From the IMG/VR virus record IMGVR_UViG_3300027896_000002, positions 10,128 to 74,127 of that record: 64,000 nt of DNA; one strand, written 5' to 3'. The DNA is from a virus. The notes under the pieces were generated by a model, which did no database searches, was not told the DNA's origin, and saw only the letters and a list, made by a program, of their open reading frames with translations. Position 1 is the first letter of the stretch; the number at the start of each line of letters is the position of its first letter. Shown here in pieces: positions 2,504 through 48,061 of the stretch. Position numbers and translations under genes: made by a program.

Positions 2504-3826
2504 ATGGACCCGATAGAAGTTGAAGTTAAAAAGAAAGAGGACGGCTCGTTGTATTTTGACGTGGCTAAGATCATGGAGCACATGCAGAATGGCACCTTAG
2601 GCGTTATTAGGCAGGAGATGAAGAGTCTTTTGCAGGCCGAGGTGAAGACCATTTTTGACAACAGCGATGGGCGTTTTGTCGGTAAAGAAGATAAGTCCAT
2701 CATCGACACAAGCTATTTCAGCAAAGGCTACGCGGCTGGCAGACGGGGTGAAATGGACGGAAGCCAGTTGGCTTTTACCCTGGCTGCTTGTGGTGGGCCG
2801 TGGCTAAAGCTCTCACCGGCTATGGAAAAGTTTGCAAACTTAGTTCGGCTGAGATTCGATCCCAATCAGATTGTCGCTAAGGGAATTAGCATGCAGGACT
2901 ATAACAAGGAGATGTATGATTGGAACAAGAAGGCCGCACTTTCTGGAGCTTTGACAGAGGCTGATGTGGGCGCGATTGTTCCAATTGAGTTCCTTGCAAC
3001 CGTCATTGAGTTTGCGATTGAGCAGAGCAAGATATTGCCCAAGCTCTGGAGAATTCCACTGGGTGCCTATCAGACAAGAATCCCGCAGCTTGCCCAGTCT
3101 GCAGGCAGCTATTTTGGTGGGATTTTGCTCTATCACCCAGAGGAAGCTTACGAGAAGACAGGTACAAAACCAACTTTCGTTTACAAGACCCTGACACCTA
3201 AGAAGTTGATCGGTTTGATTCCGATCTCTGACGAATTGGTTATGGACAGCTCAATCAACATCATCAATTACCTAACGGGCCTTTTCACCAGGGCCTTTCA
3301 GTATGCGTCAGAGGGTGAGGTGATTGCAGGTGCTGGGCTGTTGGGCCAGATGCTGGGCATCACCAGTGACCCTTTTATCAACGTAGTGCCCAGACAGACA
3401 GCAGGGACAGTCAAGAGAGATGATGTGATTAACCTTGAGTCTATCCTTGATGAGAACTTTCAGGACCTTAATTACCTGACAAGGAGAACAACCCTTAATA
3501 TTCTTCGCAAGGAGAAAAATGTTGTTGGCACTCCATTTTACTATGACACGATGGAGTCTGGGCTTGAGAGAGGGGTTGGCCCCCAGCTTAATGGGTATCC
3601 AGTGCTTAAAACTCGGAACGTGCCAGCCACAGGAAAGAAAGGTGACATCATCTGTGGTGAGCTTGGGTATTATCTCTGGGGCATTCGTCAGGACATGACC
3701 ATTGATATGTCAGCCGAGCGATATTTTGAGTACGATGTGAAGGCCATCCGCTTTGTGGTTCGTCAGGACGGACTGCCAGGCGTTTCGATTGCCTTTGCAG
3801 TGCTTGACAGTACCCCAGAATCATAA
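2504..3826 (+). CDS. Major capsid protein, HK97 fold
   Basis: GAIVPIEF...IE, KKLIGLIPISDEL..DS, LNGYPV, FEYDVKAIRFVVRQDG motifs; strong SD AAGGAGG. Confidence 0.92.
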   Translation: MDPIEVEVKKKEDGSLYFDVAKIMEHMQNGTLGVIRQEMKSLLQAEVKTIFDNSDGRFVGKEDKSIIDTSYFSKGYAAGRRGEMDGSQLAFTLAACGGPWLKLSPAMEKFANLVRLRFDPNQIVAKGISMQDYNKEMYDWNKKAALSGALTEADVGAIVPIEFLATVIEFAIEQSKILPKLWRIPLGAYQTRIPQLAQSAGSYFGGILLYHPEEAYEKTGTKPTFVYKTLTPKKLIGLIPISDELVMDSSINIINYLTGLFTRAFQYASEGEVIAGAGLLGQMLGITSDPFINVVPRQTAGTVKRDDVINLESILDENFQDLNYLTRRTTLNILRKEKNVVGTPFYYDTMESGLERGVGPQLNGYPVLKTRNVPATGKKGDIICGELGYYLWGIRQDMTIDMSAERYFEYDVKAIRFVVRQDGLPGVSIAFAVLDSTPES

Positions 3827-3835
3827 GAGCATTCA

Positions 3836-3914
3836 TCATCCAGCCTCCTTTCTGGATTGAACCGTGGCCCAGGGTAGTAGGGTAAACTGAAGACTGGGCC
3901 AATTTAAAAAGGAG
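3836..3914 (+). promoter_or_regulatory. Post-capsid RNA structure whose loop can pair with the next gene's SD
   Basis: Hairpin ATCCAG/CTGGAT with loop CCTCCTTT complementary to AAAGGAG (3908-3914); second hairpin TGGCCCAG/CTGGGCCA. Confidence 0.45.
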
Positions 3915-3918
3915 AATT

Positions 3919-5049
3919 ATGAACAAGGAGATTCCGGAAGTTTTAAAAGACGCCATTTTTACGGATGATAAAAGCATGGTTGAAGTTGAATATACTTTAT
4001 CTGGGTATGGAGGCGCCAAGACCTGGATTAGTGTGGAGCGGGCACTGCTTGGTGAAGCTCATGGAAGATGGAAGATAGTTAGAAGACTTCAGCGGTATGA
4101 TAACAAGATGATGACAGCGGAGATTCCTCCTGATTCTTTAACCAGGGGCAATTTATTCTCTAATGGAACGTATGAAACCAAGGGGGTAAAAAAAAAGAAA
4201 GTAGCTTGGGTTCAGGACCTGGTGATAAGGGGCGGGGCGGAGATCAGCAATGAGCTTGTCATTAGGACTGGGATTGAGTGTGGGTTTAACATCAAGCGAG
4301 TCTTTCAAACGGTGTCTTGTTCCATTATAGAGGACCTGTTGGGTCAGTGTGATCTTATTGTTCTTAATAACATCTGGGCCTTCTCAGATGAGCAAATGAG
4401 GGTTATTAAGATGTTTATCCAGAAGAAGCCTTATGTTAAATATGAGCATGATCATAGAGAGCTTGGCAGATTAGAATTTTCAAAAGGCCTTTTCTCAAAT
4501 TCTAAGCTTAACGTCTTTTTGTCCCCTGCCCATCTTAATAACTATCAAGAGAAGCTTGGGATAGACGGAATCTGTCTGCCTCTTGCCATTGATGTTGATC
4601 TTTTTAAACCTGTACAGGGGGTTGAGAGGAAATCTAACACGGCGCTGATATGTAACGTCAGGCATCTTAGGACATGGTTAAATCTTCAGAAATATGTGGA
4701 CGAGCATCCTGAGATTTTATTTACGGTAATGTTAAACGGTGAGACTAAGGTGGTGGGAGATAATGTTACCACCAGGCCGATGATTCCATATGAAGAGATG
4801 CCTAAACTTTATTCTGGGTTTGAGTACCTTGTCCATATCATGGATGGGTGGGGAGCTGGAGAGAGAGTCTTCTTTGAAGGCATGCTTTGTGGATGTAATG
4901 TGATTTCAAACAAAAGGGTAGGACATACTTCCTGGAATGAGCAGGAATCTATGGGTTGGGTCGTTGATTTTAAAGACGTCAATGGCTTGAGAGAATGGCT
5001 CAAGAAAGCGCCATATCAGTTTTGGAAAGCAATTGACCAAAGAATATAA
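3919..5049 (+). CDS. Glycosyltransferase (GT-B, GT4-like) with N-terminal extension
   Basis: GGAE motif, IDVDLFKP, GERVFFEGMLCGCNVI (E-x-x-x-x-G acceptor/donor motif). Confidence 0.8.
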   Translation: MNKEIPEVLKDAIFTDDKSMVEVEYTLSGYGGAKTWISVERALLGEAHGRWKIVRRLQRYDNKMMTAEIPPDSLTRGNLFSNGTYETKGVKKKKVAWVQDLVIRGGAEISNELVIRTGIECGFNIKRVFQTVSCSIIEDLLGQCDLIVLNNIWAFSDEQMRVIKMFIQKKPYVKYEHDHRELGRLEFSKGLFSNSKLNVFLSPAHLNNYQEKLGIDGICLPLAIDVDLFKPVQGVERKSNTALICNVRHLRTWLNLQKYVDEHPEILFTVMLNGETKVVGDNVTTRPMIPYEEMPKLYSGFEYLVHIMDGWGAGERVFFEGMLCGCNVISNKRVGHTSWNEQESMGWVVDFKDVNGLREWLKKAPYQFWKAIDQRI

Positions 5050-5060
5050 TAGGGATTTAC

Positions 5061-5822
5061 GTGAAAATATTTTGGGCATTTTGCATTTATAATGAAAGAG
5101 AAATGCTTCCTTTCAAGATAGATTTCATGAGAAAGAATGCCATCAATTTTTATGTCTTTGATAATGTAAGCGTAGATGGGTCGTGGGAATGGCTTCAAGA
5201 GAACAAAATTCCGTCTGGTAGGTTCAACTCTGATGGAATGTTCAACCTGACATTAAACCTTAGTTTGTTGACCAAGAAGATTCACGAGGTGAAGCCTGAT
5301 TGGGTTATTATGGCTGGGACAGATACCTTCTATGTCCATGGTAAGAGGACGCTTAGGGAGACGATAGAATCTGTGGACAAGCAGGGATTTAATTGTATCT
5401 ATGATGTTTTTAAATCGTTTCAGTTTATGTTTACTGGGGAAGAAAAACCTGGGGAAGATCCTAGGTTGACTTATATGTATTATGTTTTAAAATCTTTTAA
5501 TAATGTTTGCTGCATTGCCAAGTATTGTTCGCAGCTGAAGTTTAGGTCTGCTGATTGTCTTGTTGTCCCAAAGGCAAAGTTATATCAAGACGGGGATTTT
5601 GTGGCATTGCATTATAGCATGAGGCATGACGCAGAGAACAGGAAGACGGAACAATACATCAGGAGAAAAAAAGCTTGGGATTCGGGGCGTACCGCACGGT
5701 GCTATGGCACTCACTACGAGAGGATCGTGAACAGCGGCCGTTTTATTTTTGATAAAAAAGATCTCCTAGATGTAAGAGATTCTTTTCTTTGGGGGGCTAT
5801 AAGGAAGTCTGTAGAAGCGTGA
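5061..5822 (+). CDS. Glycosyltransferase (GT-A, GT2-like)
   Basis: IYNE..ML, VFDNVSVDGSWEWL, PDWVI...TD motifs. Confidence 0.75.
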   Translation: MKIFWAFCIYNEREMLPFKIDFMRKNAINFYVFDNVSVDGSWEWLQENKIPSGRFNSDGMFNLTLNLSLLTKKIHEVKPDWVIMAGTDTFYVHGKRTLRETIESVDKQGFNCIYDVFKSFQFMFTGEEKPGEDPRLTYMYYVLKSFNNVCCIAKYCSQLKFRSADCLVVPKAKLYQDGDFVALHYSMRHDAENRKTEQYIRRKKAWDSGRTARCYGTHYERIVNSGRFIFDKKDLLDVRDSFLWGAIRKSVEA

Positions 5823-6778
5823 TGAATGTTGTGATGCTTTCTAAACATGATTATGCTGGGAGCGGGTGGCAGATAGTCCAGGCTGTTCGTCGTCACACGA
5901 GGCATAATATTGTGCACGTCAAAACGACCTCCCATAAGCACGGTTATAAGACAGACTATATTCTAGATGGAAAAAATCGGGCAGTTGTTCAAGGGCTTGT
6001 GGACAAGGCTGATGTTGTTCACTTCAAGGGAGATGATCTTCCATCGAGAGATTGGTATGGAGTTAAGATCCCAGAGAAAGTGAAAATTATTCTTACCGTT
6101 GGGGGATCGTTTTTTAGAAGAAATGGAAGGAGGACAGGGCTTAGGCCAATTGAAGAGTATGTTAAAAGATCGGATTTTAGGACTGCCTTGTCTCCTGATT
6201 TGAATTATGATGAATTTAAGTCAGTGTATACTCCATACTTGATCGATAGCGAAAAAGCGGAGTATTCTTGGAAAGAGGATAGGGATGGAAAGTTTGTTAT
6301 TGGCTGCTATCCTGGAGTGAGAAAAGAAAAGGGTTTTGAATCAGTTGTCGAGCCTGCTTGGCGTCAGCTTGAAAAGGAAGGATATAAATTTGAGAAGGTG
6401 TTAACGATTGGAATGACATACGAACAAAGCGTTGGGGCCAAGAAGGGGATGTCAATATTTATAGATCAGATTTCCTTGGCCGGCTGCTATGGGAATTCTG
6501 CTCTTGAGGCCATGCAGTTTGGCATTCCTGTAGTTGCTTATATAGGAGATGTGGCTTTAAAGCATGCCATGGAAGAATTTAAAAAATCTCCGATTATGAA
6601 TCCTGGAAAAACAAAGGAGGGGCTTTATCTTTTACTCAAGAGGATACTGTCAAGAAAAATTGACTTGTCAGATATATCTAAAAAGACGAAATGTTACTGC
6701 GATGGTTTTCACTCCTATACCGTAGGGGCAAGGATATGGAATGAGATTTATGAAAAAGTTGCAAGCAAAAATGTTTAA
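5822..6778 (+). CDS. Glycosyltransferase (GT4-like)
   Basis: IFIDQI...YGNSALEAMQFGIPVV; ATG overlaps upstream TGA (ORF track starts at 5789). Confidence 0.75.
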   Translation: MNVVMLSKHDYAGSGWQIVQAVRRHTRHNIVHVKTTSHKHGYKTDYILDGKNRAVVQGLVDKADVVHFKGDDLPSRDWYGVKIPEKVKIILTVGGSFFRRNGRRTGLRPIEEYVKRSDFRTALSPDLNYDEFKSVYTPYLIDSEKAEYSWKEDRDGKFVIGCYPGVRKEKGFESVVEPAWRQLEKEGYKFEKVLTIGMTYEQSVGAKKGMSIFIDQISLAGCYGNSALEAMQFGIPVVAYIGDVALKHAMEEFKKSPIMNPGKTKEGLYLLLKRILSRKIDLSDISKKTKCYCDGFHSYTVGARIWNEIYEKVASKNV

Positions 6779-7379
6779 AAACGTTTTAGTTGTGTCTCCT
6801 CACACGGATGATGGTGAACTTGGGGCAGGGGGGTCATTGGCTAAATTCTCAAGAGAAGGAAGCCAAATTACTCATCTGGTGTTTTTTGATGGGGAAAAGC
6901 AGTCAGAGGAAATTTTAAAAGAGTTTGAAAAGTCAAACGGTATTTTTGCCCCATCTTCAAACAGGATAGTGGAGAGGCTTAAGATAAGAAGTTATGAAAA
7001 GGACCGTCAAAGAATATTGGATTTAATGATTGAAATTGAAAGAAGTTTTAAACCAGACCTTGTCTTTCTTCCCTCGTCGAGAGACTTTCATCAAGATCAC
7101 ATGACGGTTTCAAGGGAAGGGCTTAGGGCATTTAAATTTTCTACTATCTTCGGTTATGAGGAACCTTGGAATAACCTCGTGTTTGAGACGTCTTGCTTTA
7201 TTGAGATATCAAAAGGAGATCTTTCAAAGAAATTGCGGGCGTTAAATTGTTATAAGTCTCAAAAGGCGCACTATTATTTTTCAGATGAGATTATTCGATC
7301 ACTGGCTTTAGTCAGGGGAATGCAGATCAGGGCTCAGTACGCGGAGGCATTTGAGATCATTAGGATGATTGTTCATTGA
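6741..7379 (+). CDS. PIG-L/LmbE family N-acetylsugar deacetylase
   Basis: SPHTDDGELGAGG and DFHQDH metal-binding motifs; likely start 6771. Confidence 0.9.
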   Translation: MRFMKKLQAKMFKNVLVVSPHTDDGELGAGGSLAKFSREGSQITHLVFFDGEKQSEEILKEFEKSNGIFAPSSNRIVERLKIRSYEKDRQRILDLMIEIERSFKPDLVFLPSSRDFHQDHMTVSREGLRAFKFSTIFGYEEPWNNLVFETSCFIEISKGDLSKKLRALNCYKSQKAHYYFSDEIIRSLALVRGMQIRAQYAEAFEIIRMIVH

Positions 7380-43906: not shown

Positions 43907-44101
43907 CTACTTCCTGATGAAGGCGCCGGTCGTTCCCTTTGCAAATTTTCTAATCGCGCTCACGACGCTGGTCAAATCCTTCGGGTCGATTCGCATCGTG
44001 CCAAGAGATGCCTTTCGGTCAGTGGTAAGAAGCATCACGCCAAGGGTCCCACCGTTCTTTTTAATGGCCTTCTTTGCTGGCTTTTTTGCCATGGTCCTCA
44101 C
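43907..44101 (-). CDS. Small basic hypothetical protein
   Basis: ORF with SD. Confidence 0.55.
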   Translation of the reverse strand: MRTMAKKPAKKAIKKNGGTLGVMLLTTDRKASLGTMRIDPKDLTSVVSAIRKFAKGTTGAFIRK

Positions 44102-44134
44102 CTCCTTTCATGGAAAATTTTTACTAATAAAAAA

Positions 44135-44320
44135 TCAACGTAAGTCTATTCTCTCTTTCATTCGGCAATAAATAGGATTCCCAGACCTATCTATAAGTTT
44201 TGGGCTTAAAATGATATGGCATTTTGGACAGGTCAAAGTCTCCCACTTTTTTATCTCCTCTCCCATTGCCATAAATTCATCTCCACATACTGTGCAATAT
44301 AGCATTAAACCCTTTTCCAT
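44135..44320 (-). CDS. Small zinc-ribbon protein
   Basis: CxxC...CxxC. Confidence 0.55.
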   Translation of the reverse strand: MEKGLMLYCTVCGDEFMAMGEEIKKWETLTCPKCHIILSPKLIDRSGNPIYCRMKERIDLR

Positions 44321-44337
44321 TATTTTATTCTCCTTTC

Positions 44338-45105
44338 TTAATGGCCAATTACCCGTTGACCTTGACCTGGGTTATGGCGAAGGGCATTAGCCCTAAGGGA
44401 AACCTCGTTGGCCATTTGCTCACCTCGTCGTTGGCCCTCACTGTTGTGCCGAAACTGGTTTAACCTGTTAGCAGACCTAAGCCCCTTAAGATTTTTCATC
44501 CAATCATTTACCTCAGTCAAGGCCCGATCTAACCTAACCAAGGCGGTGGAGCCAGTAGGAGCTGCTGCGTTTCGCTCGGCATCAAACCGTTTGCTTAGAC
44601 CAAGGACAAAACCATAAAGCCAAGCACTTCGAAAGCCACGAGCTTCAGTCACATCACCATTGTCGCGGCATTCGTAAAAGTACTTGACATATTCCTTCTC
44701 GGCCATCTTCTCCGCAAGCTTATACATGGTTACAAAAAGATATTCGGCAATCTCACGGTCGCTTTTATGCCCAACTAAGCAGATATGATTTGAGCCAACG
44801 GAAATTAAGATCTTACAGAAATGGGCCTTAGCAATGATGCTGGCTAATTGCTCAGACCATTGCTGACGGGCCTTTTTTGAAGTAATTCCTTGAGTTTCAA
44901 AGTCAACCCATACCTTACAAATGGGGTCGGTATCTTCTCTCTTGTCCCAATCAACTTCAGACATAGAAAGATTGTGCTTGAGCAGCAGCTGATTAACCAT
45001 TCCAGCAAAGGCCTCGGCCTCTTCTTGGCTACCAATTTTCTCACATGATTCTGCCTTTGCATGAAGCTTTCGAATCTTGTCAATTACTTTTTCCTCGGTT
45101 GTCAT
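44338..45105 (-). CDS. DUF2786 domain protein
   Basis: KIRKL.AKA....EAE.F......LL.KHNL; F..GF. Confidence 0.8.
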   Translation of the reverse strand: MTTEEKVIDKIRKLHAKAESCEKIGSQEEAEAFAGMVNQLLLKHNLSMSEVDWDKREDTDPICKVWVDFETQGITSKKARQQWSEQLASIIAKAHFCKILISVGSNHICLVGHKSDREIAEYLFVTMYKLAEKMAEKEYVKYFYECRDNGDVTEARGFRSAWLYGFVLGLSKRFDAERNAAAPTGSTALVRLDRALTEVNDWMKNLKGLRSANRLNQFRHNSEGQRRGEQMANEVSLRANALRHNPGQGQRVIGH

Positions 45106-45134
45106 GGTGGTCTCCTCCTTTTAGATTTTATTTT

Positions 45135-45190
45135 GTTACCTACCTGGGATTAAACCCAGGTTTCGGCCATTTAGGCCTCATCAGGGCAAC
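45135..45190 (-). ncRNA. Hammerhead ribozyme (type I), GUA cleavage
   Basis: GUUGCC-CUGAUGA-GGCC UAAAU GGCC-GAAA-CCUGGG UUUAAU CCCAGG-UA-GGUAAC. Confidence 0.93.
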
Positions 45191-45540
45191 TGAATTGAAA
45201 TTTCAAGGCCATCTTTAAAACTTTGAATTGTGAGTGGAATTTCCTTAATCCGTAAAATCTTTGAAAGGTTTTTTCCTTGCAGGTCAGTCAATGGTTCTTT
45301 AAAATACAGGTGCAATAAAGCCCGTTTATAGGAAAAAGGCTTTGTTTCCATGAAGGAATTGTTAAAATACATCTGAGACCTGACAACCTCAATGCCCCTT
45401 CGTTTAAGGATTGGAAACACTGTTGTTATATGCTTATCAGCCAAGTCACTTAAAAGCTTGCAGTTTTTTTCTGCTAAATCTGCCTCAAGTAAAAGTTCTT
45501 GAACTTCCATCTCAATTCGTTCCTTATTAATCTTTTCCAT
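45181..45540 (-). CDS. Hypothetical early protein
   Basis: Conserved leader; stop is the first UGA of a hammerhead core. Confidence 0.65.
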   Translation of the reverse strand: MEKINKERIEMEVQELLLEADLAEKNCKLLSDLADKHITTVFPILKRRGIEVVRSQMYFNNSFMETKPFSYKRALLHLYFKEPLTDLQGKNLSKILRIKEIPLTIQSFKDGLEISIQLP

Positions 45541-45570
45541 GGTCTCCTCCTTTTGAATTTTATTTTATAG

Positions 45571-45756
45571 TTAACAATCAAATTTACTTTCAACCTTAAA
45601 CTTCTTGATCGCTTCATTCAGATAACTTTTCTCAATCTGCTTTCCCGCTGAAACAAGAATCGCATAATCGAGGTCACATCCCTTTAATGTGATCATCAGG
45701 GCTAATTTTAATTGGGCTGGCGTCATTTGCATTATGATGCTTTCTAAATTTTCCAT
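45571..45756 (-). CDS. Hypothetical early protein
   Basis: Conserved leader. Confidence 0.6.
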   Translation of the reverse strand: MENLESIIMQMTPAQLKLALMITLKGCDLDYAILVSAGKQIEKSYLNEAIKKFKVESKFDC

Positions 45757-45782
45757 AGTCTCCTCCTTTTGAATTTTATTTT

Positions 45783-45838
45783 ACCACCGACCCGAGATTA
45801 ATCTCGGGTTTCGACCATTGAGGTCTCATCAGGATGAT
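45783..45838 (-). ncRNA. Hammerhead ribozyme (type I), GUC cleavage
   Basis: AUCAUC-CUGAUGA-GACC UCAAU GGUC-GAAA-CCCGAG AUUAAU CUCGGG-UC-GGUGGU. Confidence 0.94.
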
Positions 45839-46215
45839 TTTCTTGCCTGAAATGTTTCTCCTCTTTTCTCGATGATTGCCCCTAATTGAAAAGCCGCTGC
45901 CATATCTATTAGATCTTGTACCTCCTCTTTAGCAAGTTTAACGGCTCTGGCAACACTCATCTTCCAATTTTTAATGTAATGATCTCGAAGTTGAAAGAGT
46001 AAAGTTTCTTCAAGAACTGGAAGCTCTACCACTTTCATCGTGGTGGTAGATTTATTGCACTCAACTCCCGCCATTGACCGTCGGCATCCACAGCTTCCAT
46101 CCACTGTCTCACCATCACACTCAAAGGAAAAATGAACAATCTCACCTTCCGGTACCCAGCAAAAATCATTTTTCCTTTGCCCCTGCATCTCTTTCGTTGC
46201 CACGATAATCTTCAT
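45829..46215 (-). CDS. Conserved Cys-containing hypothetical protein
   Basis: VAT..QG.R.NDF, C....CGC.R motif. Confidence 0.65.
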   Translation of the reverse strand: MKIIVATKEMQGQRKNDFCWVPEGEIVHFSFECDGETVDGSCGCRRSMAGVECNKSTTTMKVVELPVLEETLLFQLRDHYIKNWKMSVARAVKLAKEEVQDLIDMAAAFQLGAIIEKRGETFQARKSS

Positions 46216-46256
46216 AATCAGTCTCCTCCGTTTTGCCCATTGGGCGGTTAAAGGTT

Positions 46257-46403
46257 TTAATAAATTTCCCTGGCATTGATCGAATCAACTGTGATCTTTG
46301 CTGGCCCATTTTCCAAGGTCATTTTAATATACTCTTCGATCTGCCCGTCACCATCCATCTCACCATCATTGACTTCAATCTCCATTATAACTTTTATCTT
46401 CAT
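46257..46403 (-). CDS. Small acidic hypothetical protein (48 aa)
   Basis: ATG after conserved leader; not in ORF track. Confidence 0.6.
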   Translation of the reverse strand: MKIKVIMEIEVNDGEMDGDGQIEEYIKMTLENGPAKITVDSINAREIY

Positions 46404-46429
46404 GGTCTCCTCCTTTTTAATTTTATTCT

Positions 46430-46484
46430 ATCATCGACCCGAGTTAAACTCGGGTTTCGACCATTTAGGTCTCATCAGGATGAT
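46430..46484 (-). ncRNA. Hammerhead ribozyme (type I), GUC cleavage
   Basis: AUCAUC-CUGAUGA-GACC UAAAU GGUC-GAAA-CCCGAG UUUAA CUCGGG-UC-GAUGAU. Confidence 0.95.
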
Positions 46485-46500
46485 TTTTATATTTTTCTCA

Positions 46501-46779
46501 TTAGATTACTCTTACGATAGAAAGATAAGGTGTCGTATCCTGCTCCAATTTCCATCGCATCCTATCAACTATCAAATTAAGATCCATTCTGTGCGTGAAG
46601 TCTTGCTCCTCACCGTGCTCAAAATTAATGGTCACGATGAACTCCGTCTTCTCCTCGTCCTGCATATTGCTGTGAGAAGAAGAGACTCTCGACTTTGGAA
46701 AAAAAGATGCTGCCACTCTATAAAGACTGTTCATCTCGTTCCATGCTACTGCTCTTTTTTCCTGAATTTTTTTATTCAT
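46501..46779 (-). CDS. Hypothetical early protein
   Basis: Conserved leader. Confidence 0.6.
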   Translation of the reverse strand: MNKKIQEKRAVAWNEMNSLYRVAASFFPKSRVSSSHSNMQDEEKTEFIVTINFEHGEEQDFTHRMDLNLIVDRMRWKLEQDTTPYLSIVRVI

Positions 46780-46814
46780 TTTGGTCTCCTCCTTTTAAAA
46801 TTTGAATTTAAAAT

Positions 46815-47009
46815 TTAAGGCAATACAACAATTTCCAAAGCACCAGGAAAATTTCTTTTTATCTCTTTTAGAGCACTGGTAAAAAATCCATATCTCATTT
46901 CTCTAAAAGCCTGGCCGTTAGAATATTTAATATTAAACCACCATTGACCTTTTCCTTTTGGTTCTTTTCCATGGCTAAAAAAATATTCATTCTTATTTAT
47001 TGCTTTCAT
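46815..47009 (-). CDS. Hypothetical early protein
   Basis: Conserved leader; SHGK.PKG.G.W.F motif. Confidence 0.65.
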   Translation of the reverse strand: MKAINKNEYFFSHGKEPKGKGQWWFNIKYSNGQAFREMRYGFFTSALKEIKRNFPGALEIVVLP

Positions 47010-47037
47010 CTTGGTCTCCTCCTTTTAAATTTTTTAG

Positions 47038-47280
47038 TTAGAACCTGCAGTTAACTTCAAAGTAAGAATCCTTTGGCCATGCTCGCCATATTTTCCAAGC
47101 ATTGATAATCTCGACATGGGGAAATATTTTTTTAATTTGTTCAGCATAACTCTCAGCTGTTTTCCCAAAGGTATAAAAGAATCCAAACCTAAAACTTATC
47201 GTCTTATCCTTTTTGAAGATAATTTTATCAGGATAGATATTGGTCCCATCAATCATCTCTTTGAATTGTCTTTTTGTCAT
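47038..47280 (-). CDS. Hypothetical early protein
   Basis: Conserved leader. Confidence 0.65.
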   Translation of the reverse strand: MTKRQFKEMIDGTNIYPDKIIFKKDKTISFRFGFFYTFGKTAESYAEQIKKIFPHVEIINAWKIWRAWPKDSYFEVNCRF

Positions 47281-47438
47281 GGTCTCCTCCTTTTTTTACT
47301 TAATCCCTTTAACAAGGATTTGAAGTGCGACCGGCTCTAAAGAAAATAGAACCTTAATCGCTGTTAGAAATCCAATGATCTTCCAAATTCCAAAAAAATT
47401 TTTCTTTGTGATGTTGCCTTTCATTTTGGTCTCCTCCT

Positions 47439-47573
47439 TTATTTTTTGATAAGGCTTTTATGAATAATTTTTCCAGTAGAAAGTACAAGAAAACCTCTAC
47501 CATAACCATCTTCCTTTGTTGCTTTTCTAATAATAAAAATTTCCTTATTTCTAAACGTGTAAACTTTTCTCAT
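47439..47573 (-). CDS. Small hypothetical protein (44 aa)
   Basis: ATG after conserved leader; not in ORF track. Confidence 0.55.
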   Translation of the reverse strand: MRKVYTFRNKEIFIIRKATKEDGYGRGFLVLSTGKIIHKSLIKK

Positions 47574-47597
47574 GGTCTCCTCCTTTTAAATTTTAAT

Positions 47598-47672
47598 CGC
47601 GGCTTGCAACCCTTAACTTTTTTACCGCCGGCATGATCTATATCTTAATGATATAAACCACGCCACAGGGTC
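47598..47672 (-). ncRNA. Candidate pseudoknot RNA motif, copy 2
   Basis: GACCCU/AGGGUU; 15-bp hairpin; GCGGU/GCCGC; conserved GGCG-N6-AAGUUAAGGG. Confidence 0.5.
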
Positions 47673-47885
47673 ATTTTGTCTTTTCACTCTTCAGTTGTCA
47701 AGGTTGGTGGCGGATTATTCTAATGATAGGCCTGAAAAATGTTTTTCAGATCCTACGTTCGAAACGCCTTGGTTATTGTCAAAAACTTCTGCCTTTGCCA
47801 ATGAGGCTTGGTCCCCGGCTCGCTTGTTGCCTTTGTTTCTCGCCTCGCTTGCCTCATGATATTTATTAATCTTAACCATGACCTA

Positions 47886-47914
47886 ATCCTACTATATCTA
47901 AATGATAATGTAAA
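47886..47914 (-). promoter_or_regulatory. Sigma70-type early promoter
   Basis: TTTACA-17 nt-TAGGAT with AT-rich upstream region, facing the early gene array. Confidence 0.65.
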
Positions 47915-47941
47915 TACTTTTTTTCATTTCCAGGAAAATAG

Positions 47942-48061
47942 TTTCTAAGTTATTGAAATCATTAGGCTTTTTAATCATTAATTTTTTTTAATTTTAACCA
48001 TTTTTCTGTCTTAAAAAAGCTTCATGGTACATGTTTTTCTAAGTTATTGAAATTATTAGGC
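47942..48061. repeat. 26-bp direct repeat with IHF-like core
   Basis: TTTCTAAGTTATTGAAATYATTAGGC at 47942 and 48036. Confidence 0.7.

Follow-up and report, generated by a model that had tools for sequence, protein, structure and literature searches.

Hammerhead ribozymes in prophages have been described as clusters in which several copies flank single genes or short gene blocks; three such tandem arrangements were cleaved in vitro on native fragments of ~2 kb and one of them in vivo, and the processing of long phage transcripts into operon- or gene-length mRNAs was proposed as their role (Perreault et al., 2011; PMC3088659). A review from 2019 still described the purpose of bacterial and phage hammerheads as unresolved (PMC6765202). 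Here, we describe a cluster of the same kind in a 64-kb stretch of viral DNA (the window), which corresponds to bases 10128–74127 of the 74,127-bp IMG/VR virus record IMGVR_UViG_3300027896_000002, a genome rated 100% complete by CheckV. Three type I hammerheads, named HH1, HH2 and HH3 in the order of transcription, are spaced 647 and 648 nt apart on the minus strand, and each adjacent pair flanks two genes. As in the clusters of Perreault et al., several co-oriented hammerheads are found within a few kb between small phage genes, the same role is proposed for them, and the neighboring genes are of an accessory or anti-restriction kind (ardA there; DUF932, DUF2786 and DUF7715 here). Unlike those clusters, the array belongs to an uncultured phage known here from its sequence, and all three ribozymes are of type I with a 6-bp stem I capped by an A·A mismatch. 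Moreover, two of them carry the stop codon of the upstream gene in their catalytic core, while stop codons are not discussed by Perreault et al. (0 occurrences of the term). Overall, the array illustrates cleanly, though in no unusual way, a layout of clustered phage hammerheads that has been known since 2011. Judged from the sequence, the three elements are likely to be functional type I hammerhead ribozymes in one co-oriented phage operon, which process its message.

The initial annotation had placed three type I hammerheads with intact CUGAUGA/GAAA cores and GUC or GUA cleavage triplets on the minus strand, and both the positions and the cores were confirmed, first by reading the minus strand directly between 44900 and 46700 for the hammerhead layout, and second by scanning the plus and minus strands of the entire window with a descriptor (core and minimum lengths of 3, 2 and 3 bp for stems I, II and III), which yielded exactly three complete type I hammerheads. 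HH1 occupies positions 46484–46430 with the predicted cut at 46436|46435 (after C46436, triplet GUC), HH2 positions 45838–45783 with the cut at 45789|45788 (after C45789, triplet GUC) and HH3 positions 45190–45135 with the cut at 45141|45140 (after A45141, triplet GUA), all on the minus strand. Each element runs through the 5' strand of stem I, CUGAUGA, the stem II hairpin, GAAA, the stem III hairpin, U-H and the 3' strand of stem I. In HH1, this order reads AUCAUC, CUGAUGA, GACC-UAAAU-GGUC, GAAA, a stem III of 8 bp, GUC and GAUGAU. HH2 has the same core as HH1, with stem I formed by AUCAUC and GGUGGU (including three G·U pairs), UCAAU as loop II and a 9-bp stem III, while in HH3 stem I is GUUGCC/GGUAAC, stem II is GGCC-UAAAU-GGCC and stem III has 7 bp. 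The lengths of stems I, II and III are thereby 6/4/8, 6/4/9 and 6/4/7 bp in HH1, HH2 and HH3, respectively. The nucleotides required for catalysis (C3 U4 G5 A6 N7 G8 A9, G12 A13 A14, the pair A15.1-U16.1 and H17 other than G) are present in all three copies, as CUGAUGA, GAAA and U-C, U-C or U-A. The pairs adjacent to the core are also standard throughout (C2.1-G1.1, G10.1-C11.1 and A15.1-U16.1), and stem I is open in each.

Folded on its own, each element has its predicted free-energy minimum in the three-way junction, at -21.0, -20.4 and -25.1 kcal/mol for HH1, HH2 and HH3 and with z scores of -4.3, -2.0 and -4.1, respectively. In ~130 nt of native context, the junction is predicted to be retained by HH1 and HH3. 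The covariation of stems I–III that had been noted from the three copies was borne out both by these copies and by a family alignment: six compensatory double substitutions separate the copies, among them a change from A-U to G-C in stem II and changes from C-G to U-A and from A-U to G-C in stem III.

To examine a resemblance arising by chance, the window was shuffled 200 times with its dinucleotide composition preserved. On average, 0.24 matches per shuffle were obtained with the relaxed descriptor. A strict one, with at least 5, 3 and 5 bp in stems I, II and III, gave 0 matches in the 200 shuffles versus the three observed copies with 6/4/7 bp or better, and a chance origin of the three motifs is excluded. 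At the curated gathering thresholds no Rfam family matched anywhere in the window or in the first 10 kb of the genome. An Rfam hammerhead search had been suggested as a check on the initial annotation; it returned matches when reported by E-value below the threshold, and none at the gathering scores. With RF00163 (Hammerhead_1, gathering score 34), HH1 reached 33.7 bits over all 45 model positions, i.e., 0.3 bits short, HH2 reached 15.2 bits and HH3 gave no match. RF03152 (RAGATH-1, gathering score 56.3) scored HH1 at 45.2, HH2 at 28.6 and HH3 at 23.0 bits. The gathering score of RF00163 is a curation threshold and not a biochemical criterion.

The three elements share with RF00163 the core, the three-stem topology, the open stem I and the 4-bp stem II, and the model's loop N-A-A-A-U is similar to theirs; in contrast to the model, their stem III is much longer (7–9 bp). 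With RF03152, the best-scoring Rfam family for HH1, they have in common the core, the long stem III and an A/U-rich linker before stem I. Membership in RAGATH-1 was nevertheless rejected: all three remain below 56.3 bits, the extra 5' hairpin that defines that family is not formed (its pairs would be non-canonical) and stem II is an ordinary one of 4 bp rather than a reduced one.

A wider set of relatives was collected with a pattern consisting of the core and stem II only, which retrieved 20 viral contigs and 56 metagenome contigs and had 0 matches in 185k species genomes. This pattern leaves stems I and III unspecified, so their pairing is a non-circular test, and in 54 of the 57 unique matches away from contig ends both stems form in register, with 5 bp or more in stem I and 4 bp or more in stem III. 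A covariance model (R1) was trained on 30 hammerheads taken from phage contigs other than the window; it found only three sites in the 64 kb up to E = 10, namely, HH1 with 58.1 bits (E 3e-15), HH3 with 55.0 bits (E 2.7e-14) and HH2 with 52.2 bits (E 2e-13), and no match in 878 kb of unrelated loci. In a family alignment of 34 sequences, all 540 of 540 cells pair, double changes occur in 13 of the 16 pairs, and the alignment has a covariation score of 0.918 (0.19 in shuffles), a test that is partly circular since this set was chosen by a pairing descriptor. The shortfall at the Rfam thresholds is shared by the relatives: among ~45 complete type I hammerheads identified by the descriptor in 18 related viral loci (L007, L009–L016 and L018–L026; 144 kb), none reaches an Rfam gathering score. 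The gathering thresholds therefore miss this phage subfamily, and standard annotation leaves such elements unmarked.

That the three motifs are look-alikes or dead relics that do not cleave is extremely improbable. Such an origin would agree with the scores of all three below the Rfam gathering thresholds and with the fact that the only run listed among the sequencing runs holding this DNA is a DNA run. It is opposed by the absence of strict matches in 200 shuffles against three in the window, by R1 E-values between 3e-15 and 2e-13, by the intactness of every catalytic nucleotide and by the compensatory changes.

The family has a rather rigid geometry, to which all three copies in the window conform in stem I and loop II. 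Among 42 members, 39 have a stem I of exactly 6 bp. Of the A·A mismatch that caps this stem, the A preceding it is present in 41 of the 42 and the A following it in 38, and the hairpin of stem II amounts to 13 nt in 39, with 4 bp closed by a U-N-A-A-U loop. This fixed geometry suggests a tertiary contact in which loop II would be docked on the end of stem I; contacts of this type make natural hammerheads fast at cellular Mg2+ (PMC3088659). In the family, the ribozyme always takes up the space that separates a stop codon from the following ribosome-binding site, and the distance from the cut to the ATG has a median of 26 nt and an interquartile range of 22–31 nt. The corresponding distances in the window, which had been given as 32–35 nt, were measured as 32, 32 and 35 nt, with the start codons at 46403, 45756 and 45105.

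It was also correctly recognized in the initial annotation that in two of the three copies the core supplies the stop codon of the upstream gene. The TGA at 45831–45829, which ends the gene for a 128-aa DUF7715 protein, is the first UGA of CUGAUGA in HH2, and the TGA at 45183–45181, which ends a 119-aa gene, has the same position in HH3. The last two codons of either gene (UCA UCC in the 128-aa gene) form the 5' strand of stem I. The Pfam match of the DUF7715 protein covers residues 1–126 of 128, therefore its C-terminus is genuine. In HH1, the upstream 92-aa open reading frame (ORF) stops at TAA 46503–46501, i.e., 16 nt before the ribozyme. A survey of 100 related hammerheads with a callable upstream ORF, including HH1 of the window, located the stop at the first core UGA in 19, overlapping the 5' strand of stem I in 34 (19 of which have UAA as the last three bases of stem I), upstream of stem I by no more than 15 nt in 33, within loop II in 10 and farther 3' of loop II in 3; the only one of the 100 with a stop more than 15 nt ahead of stem I was HH1. 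A stop codon in or against the ribozyme is thus the norm of the family, and the core is one of several places in which it is compactly packed, with no preference for it.

In almost every member, stem I and the core would be masked while a ribosome terminates, and this would allow an interplay of translation and cleavage. In its strongest form, a translating or terminating ribosome would keep stem I and the core unfolded, and cutting would occur only when no ribosomes are present on the upstream gene. We regard such gating as unlikely. It would fit the use of the core UGA as the stop in HH2 and HH3 and, across the survey, the placement of the stop inside the ribozyme in 63 of 100 and no more than 15 nt before it in 33 others, where, by known footprints, the ribosome would cover stem I and the core. 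The stops are, however, spread over at least five classes with only 19 of 100 in the core, the spacer of HH1 is the largest in the family at 16 nt, and tight packing is expected of any compact phage genome. Furthermore, the cut lies ~45 nt downstream of the stop, so that translation would end normally on cleaved RNAs as well, with no need for coupling. The proposal of the initial annotation that a ribosome terminating on the core could couple cleavage to translation is therefore neither supported nor excluded.

The sequences that follow the cuts have a common design. The predicted 3' product of HH1 would start with a 5'-OH and a leader at 46435–46404 (minus strand), made up of the 3' strand of stem I, an A-rich tract and AAAGGAGGAGACC before the ATG at 46403. 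Those of HH2 and HH3, likewise with a predicted 5'-OH, have their leaders at 45788–45757 and 45140–45106 on the same strand, ending at the ATGs at 45756 and 45105. The Shine-Dalgarno leader AAAGGAGGAGAC (GGAGGAGAC) occurs in 13 copies on the minus strand between 47586 and 42231, one before each of 13 genes, with 12 copies exact and one with a single mismatch (0.42 expected by chance), and it has 0 matches in viral contigs. The shared leader that had been noted downstream of the ribozymes is indeed present after all three cuts, but it is not specific to hammerheads: the other 10 of the 13 copies have no ribozyme, so the leader characterizes the array rather than the ribozymes. In the same way, the predicted uniform 5' leaders held for the common Shine-Dalgarno part and not for the very ends, as the first 6 nt differ from product to product and ten ribozyme-free genes use the leader as well. 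The only variant leader of the array, AACGGAGGAGAC, lies in the 41-nt gap between the 48-aa and 128-aa genes (46256–46216, minus strand), where a small G+C-rich hairpin, CCGCCCAAUGGGCAAAACGG, runs into it and may partly mask this ribosome-binding site.

The suggestion of the initial annotation that the polycistronic message processes itself is well supported, as to the placement of the motifs before the next ribosome-binding sites, by sequence, fold, covariation and family context. The flanking genes are all on one strand, between promoter-like and strong terminator-like sites. Given the observed motif, fold, covariation, family membership and gene layout, we infer that the array is transcribed as one unit, that the ribozymes cleave in vivo and that the phage benefits from it. 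Each ribozyme would fold co-transcriptionally once the 3' strand of its stem I has emerged, and then cut, after which the 6-bp stem I would melt. The message would be divided into four RNAs: a piece of ~1.2 kb with five small genes, a 647-nt piece with the 48-aa gene and DUF7715, a 648-nt piece with the 61-aa and 119-aa genes, and a ~3.7-kb piece extending from DUF2786 through DUF932 to the terminator. The upstream pieces would keep their stop codon and carry the hairpins of stems II and III ahead of a terminal 2',3'-cyclic phosphate, whereas the downstream ones would begin with a 5'-OH 32–35 nt before the ATG and present a very strong Shine-Dalgarno site, unpaired in the predicted fold. The likely benefit would be to uncouple each segment from its neighbors with regard to stability and translation, resulting in differential dosage or timing, or in insulation, of fast-evolving accessory genes. 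RiboJ-type engineered insulators consist of a hammerhead-type ribozyme from a satellite RNA with an added hairpin, placed upstream of ribosome-binding sites. The phage elements resemble them in that the ribozyme directly precedes the ribosome-binding site, so that the upstream RNA context would be removed and a defined 5' end left; in contrast to RiboJ, the arrangement here is natural and its insulating effect a presumed one.

Several points weigh against such processing. None of the three hammerheads reaches an Rfam gathering score, and the stem I of HH2, weak because of its three G·U pairs, is predicted to give way to other pairings when a 128-nt context (45743–45870, minus strand) is folded. 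In this longer fold, the 3' strand GGUGGU pairs with the start-codon region of the next gene and not with its own 5' strand; the misfold could mean slower or conditional cleavage of HH2, or else be folding noise. Only 3 of the 13 genes with the leader have a ribozyme, hence cleavage is not generally needed for expression. No RNA run is listed among the sequencing runs that hold this DNA. The fate of the 5'-OH ends would depend on the host, as such ends destabilize an RNA where RNase J1 acts, while under RNase E they are neutral or protective. Finally, the search for close relatives was negative: blastn of 44000–48000 against 50,697 phage records gave no match, relatives of the 255-aa (DUF2786) and 128-aa proteins were absent from the viral contigs, and a longer lineage-specific pattern had 0 matches in metagenome contigs.

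The two units between the cuts (45141–46435, minus strand), of 647 and 648 nt, follow the same plan, namely, the leader, a gene of 48 or 61 aa, a ribosome-binding site, a gene of 128 or 119 aa and the hammerhead. Their origin as diverged tandem duplicates was considered and rejected: the proteins are dissimilar, and outside the leaders and ribozymes the DNA does not align. Since the hammerheads of other arrays are not regularly spaced, the equal length is probably a coincidence. The excised units might nevertheless be joined into circular or re-ligated RNAs, either by reversal of the ribozyme reaction or by a host ligase of the RtcB type, for which the products of hammerhead cleavage carry suitable end chemistry. 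Indeed, the 3' strand of HH1 (GAUGAU) pairs 6/6 with the 5' strand of HH2 (AUCAUC), and that of HH2 (GGUGGU) pairs 6/6, with four G·U pairs, with the 5' strand of HH3 (GUUGCC). Such compatibility was found for 56% of adjacent hammerheads within arrays versus 7% between contigs, and the likeness of copies within a genome is higher for stem I (0.77) than for stem III (0.58). These similar stems are, however, explained more simply by the shared ancestry of the copies together with a constraint on the mRNA 5' ends. Moreover, a 6-bp helix is a weak clamp across 650 nt, equal lengths such as those of the two units are not seen in other arrays, and spliced or circular products of the prophage clusters were sought and not found by Perreault et al. 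(PMC3088659). We therefore hold the joining of the units to be very unlikely, and we see equally little chance that they are two-gene units designed for rejoining into an exonuclease-proof circular mRNA, with termination on the ribozyme setting the timing.

The hammerheads occupy only 3 of the ~16 junctions of the small-gene array, and this raises the question of whether they might be passengers, i.e., selfish or neutral cassettes, active now or until recently, that travel with the leader, perhaps as recombination linkers of accessory genes, and bring little benefit by cutting. The genes they flank are mostly orphans and differ between phages, with 16 of the 20 tested having no Pfam family. 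Besides, different ribozyme classes seem interchangeable in the intergenic slot, as judged from a mixed array in one related viral contig (L021), where four type I hammerheads (3516–5459) are directly followed by three pistol ribozymes on the plus strand (5688–5767, 6145–6190 and 6749–6813), each before a gene and each passing the Rfam gathering score. Against passengers speak the strict position of the ribozymes with respect to stop codon and ribosome-binding site and the compensatory upkeep of three stems with an invariant core (3/3 here and 54/57 in the family), which points to purifying selection on the fold. On balance, passenger elements appear quite improbable, and processing of the message by the three hammerheads stays the preferred reading.

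A second structured RNA occurs in slots of the hammerhead type. One copy lies at 47660–47590 (minus strand) in the 5' untranslated region of the first gene of the array, and the other at 43915–43827 (minus strand) in the 96-nt gap before a 118-aa gene, where it is followed by the leader AAAAUAAAAUUCAAAAGGAGG, the same as that of HH2. Both consist of CCCU, a variable hairpin and then CCGGCG-N-U..A.AAGUUAAGGG. CCCU can pair with AGGG (ACCCU/AGGGU in one copy versus UCCCU/AGGGA in the other), and GCGG/CCGC versus GCGC/GUGC can pair across, which would give a pseudoknot with compensatory changes. An assignment to pistol or twister was not supported, as there was no Rfam match at E ≤ 10 and no likeness to the pistol copies of L021, and the pattern had no copy in the viral contigs.

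The array belongs to a long block of genes, from ~51.5 kb down to 40 kb, that are all on the minus strand. In the order of transcription, these are genes for an AEP-type primase, a helix-turn-helix protein and a UvrD-like helicase, then an AT-rich gap, the ~16 small genes, a terminator-like hairpin and the genes for dUTPase and methyltransferase. The best promoter-like site of the AT-rich gap, TTGACA-17-CAAAAT at 47701–47673 (minus strand; a consensus match only), is upstream of the first gene of the array, and the terminator-like hairpin of 14 pairs with a T tract (41447–41414, minus strand) would likely mark the operon end. The array may thus form one co-oriented operon from roughly 47.67 to 41.41 kb with a ~6.2-kb transcript. 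Its description as an early or middle operon is reasonable from its position downstream of the promoter-like site and between the primase/helicase genes and those of nucleotide metabolism. In the same AT-rich gap between the helicase and the array, beside promoter-like sites, a 26-nt direct repeat, GCCUAAU(A/G)AUUUCAAUAACUUAGAAA, is present in two copies (48061–48036 and 47967–47942, minus strand), which look like operator sites.

Around the ribozymes, all on the minus strand, the genes are as follows. The 92-aa ORF upstream of HH1 (46779–46501) has no confident family match. The unit between HH1 and HH2 starts with a 48-aa ORF (46403–46257), followed by the 128-aa DUF7715 protein (46215–45829; Pfam PF24831, E 5.6e-30), and that between HH2 and HH3 starts with a 61-aa ORF (45756–45571), followed by the 119-aa ORF (45540–45181), which has no family match. 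The first gene after HH3 encodes a 255-aa protein with DUF2786 and DUF7168 (45105–44338; phrog_421). Apart from DUF7715, DUF2786 + DUF7168 and DUF932, the genes of the small-gene array are orphans. No tRNA was found in the window.

Relatives of the UvrD-like helicase were scattered over many phyla (80 loci) and did not indicate a host. The idea that the hammerheads travel with this helicase was rejected, with 0 R1 matches in these 80 loci (878 kb). A look-up of sequencing runs found this DNA in only one run, from a freshwater metagenome (DNA), which is probably the source sample. Outside the window, bases 1–480 of the phage record contain at least 11 tandem copies of a 42-nt unit (…GAGGTTCATCTGATGAAGCCCATTAAACATCCCATGGACTTT…), reaching to the very end of the record. 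These repeats were rejected as hammerheads, since their three weak and identical model matches (13.6 bits) stem from a contained CTGATGA.

What is added here beyond the confirmation of the array are the family statistics of stop placement, the A·A-capped 6-bp stem I, the compatibility of stems I within arrays and the failure at the Rfam thresholds. With only three copies in an uncultured phage, the locus opens no new angle on the purpose of hammerheads. It is, on the other hand, a compact test substrate, which combines three ribozymes, four predicted products and two stop codons in the catalytic core.

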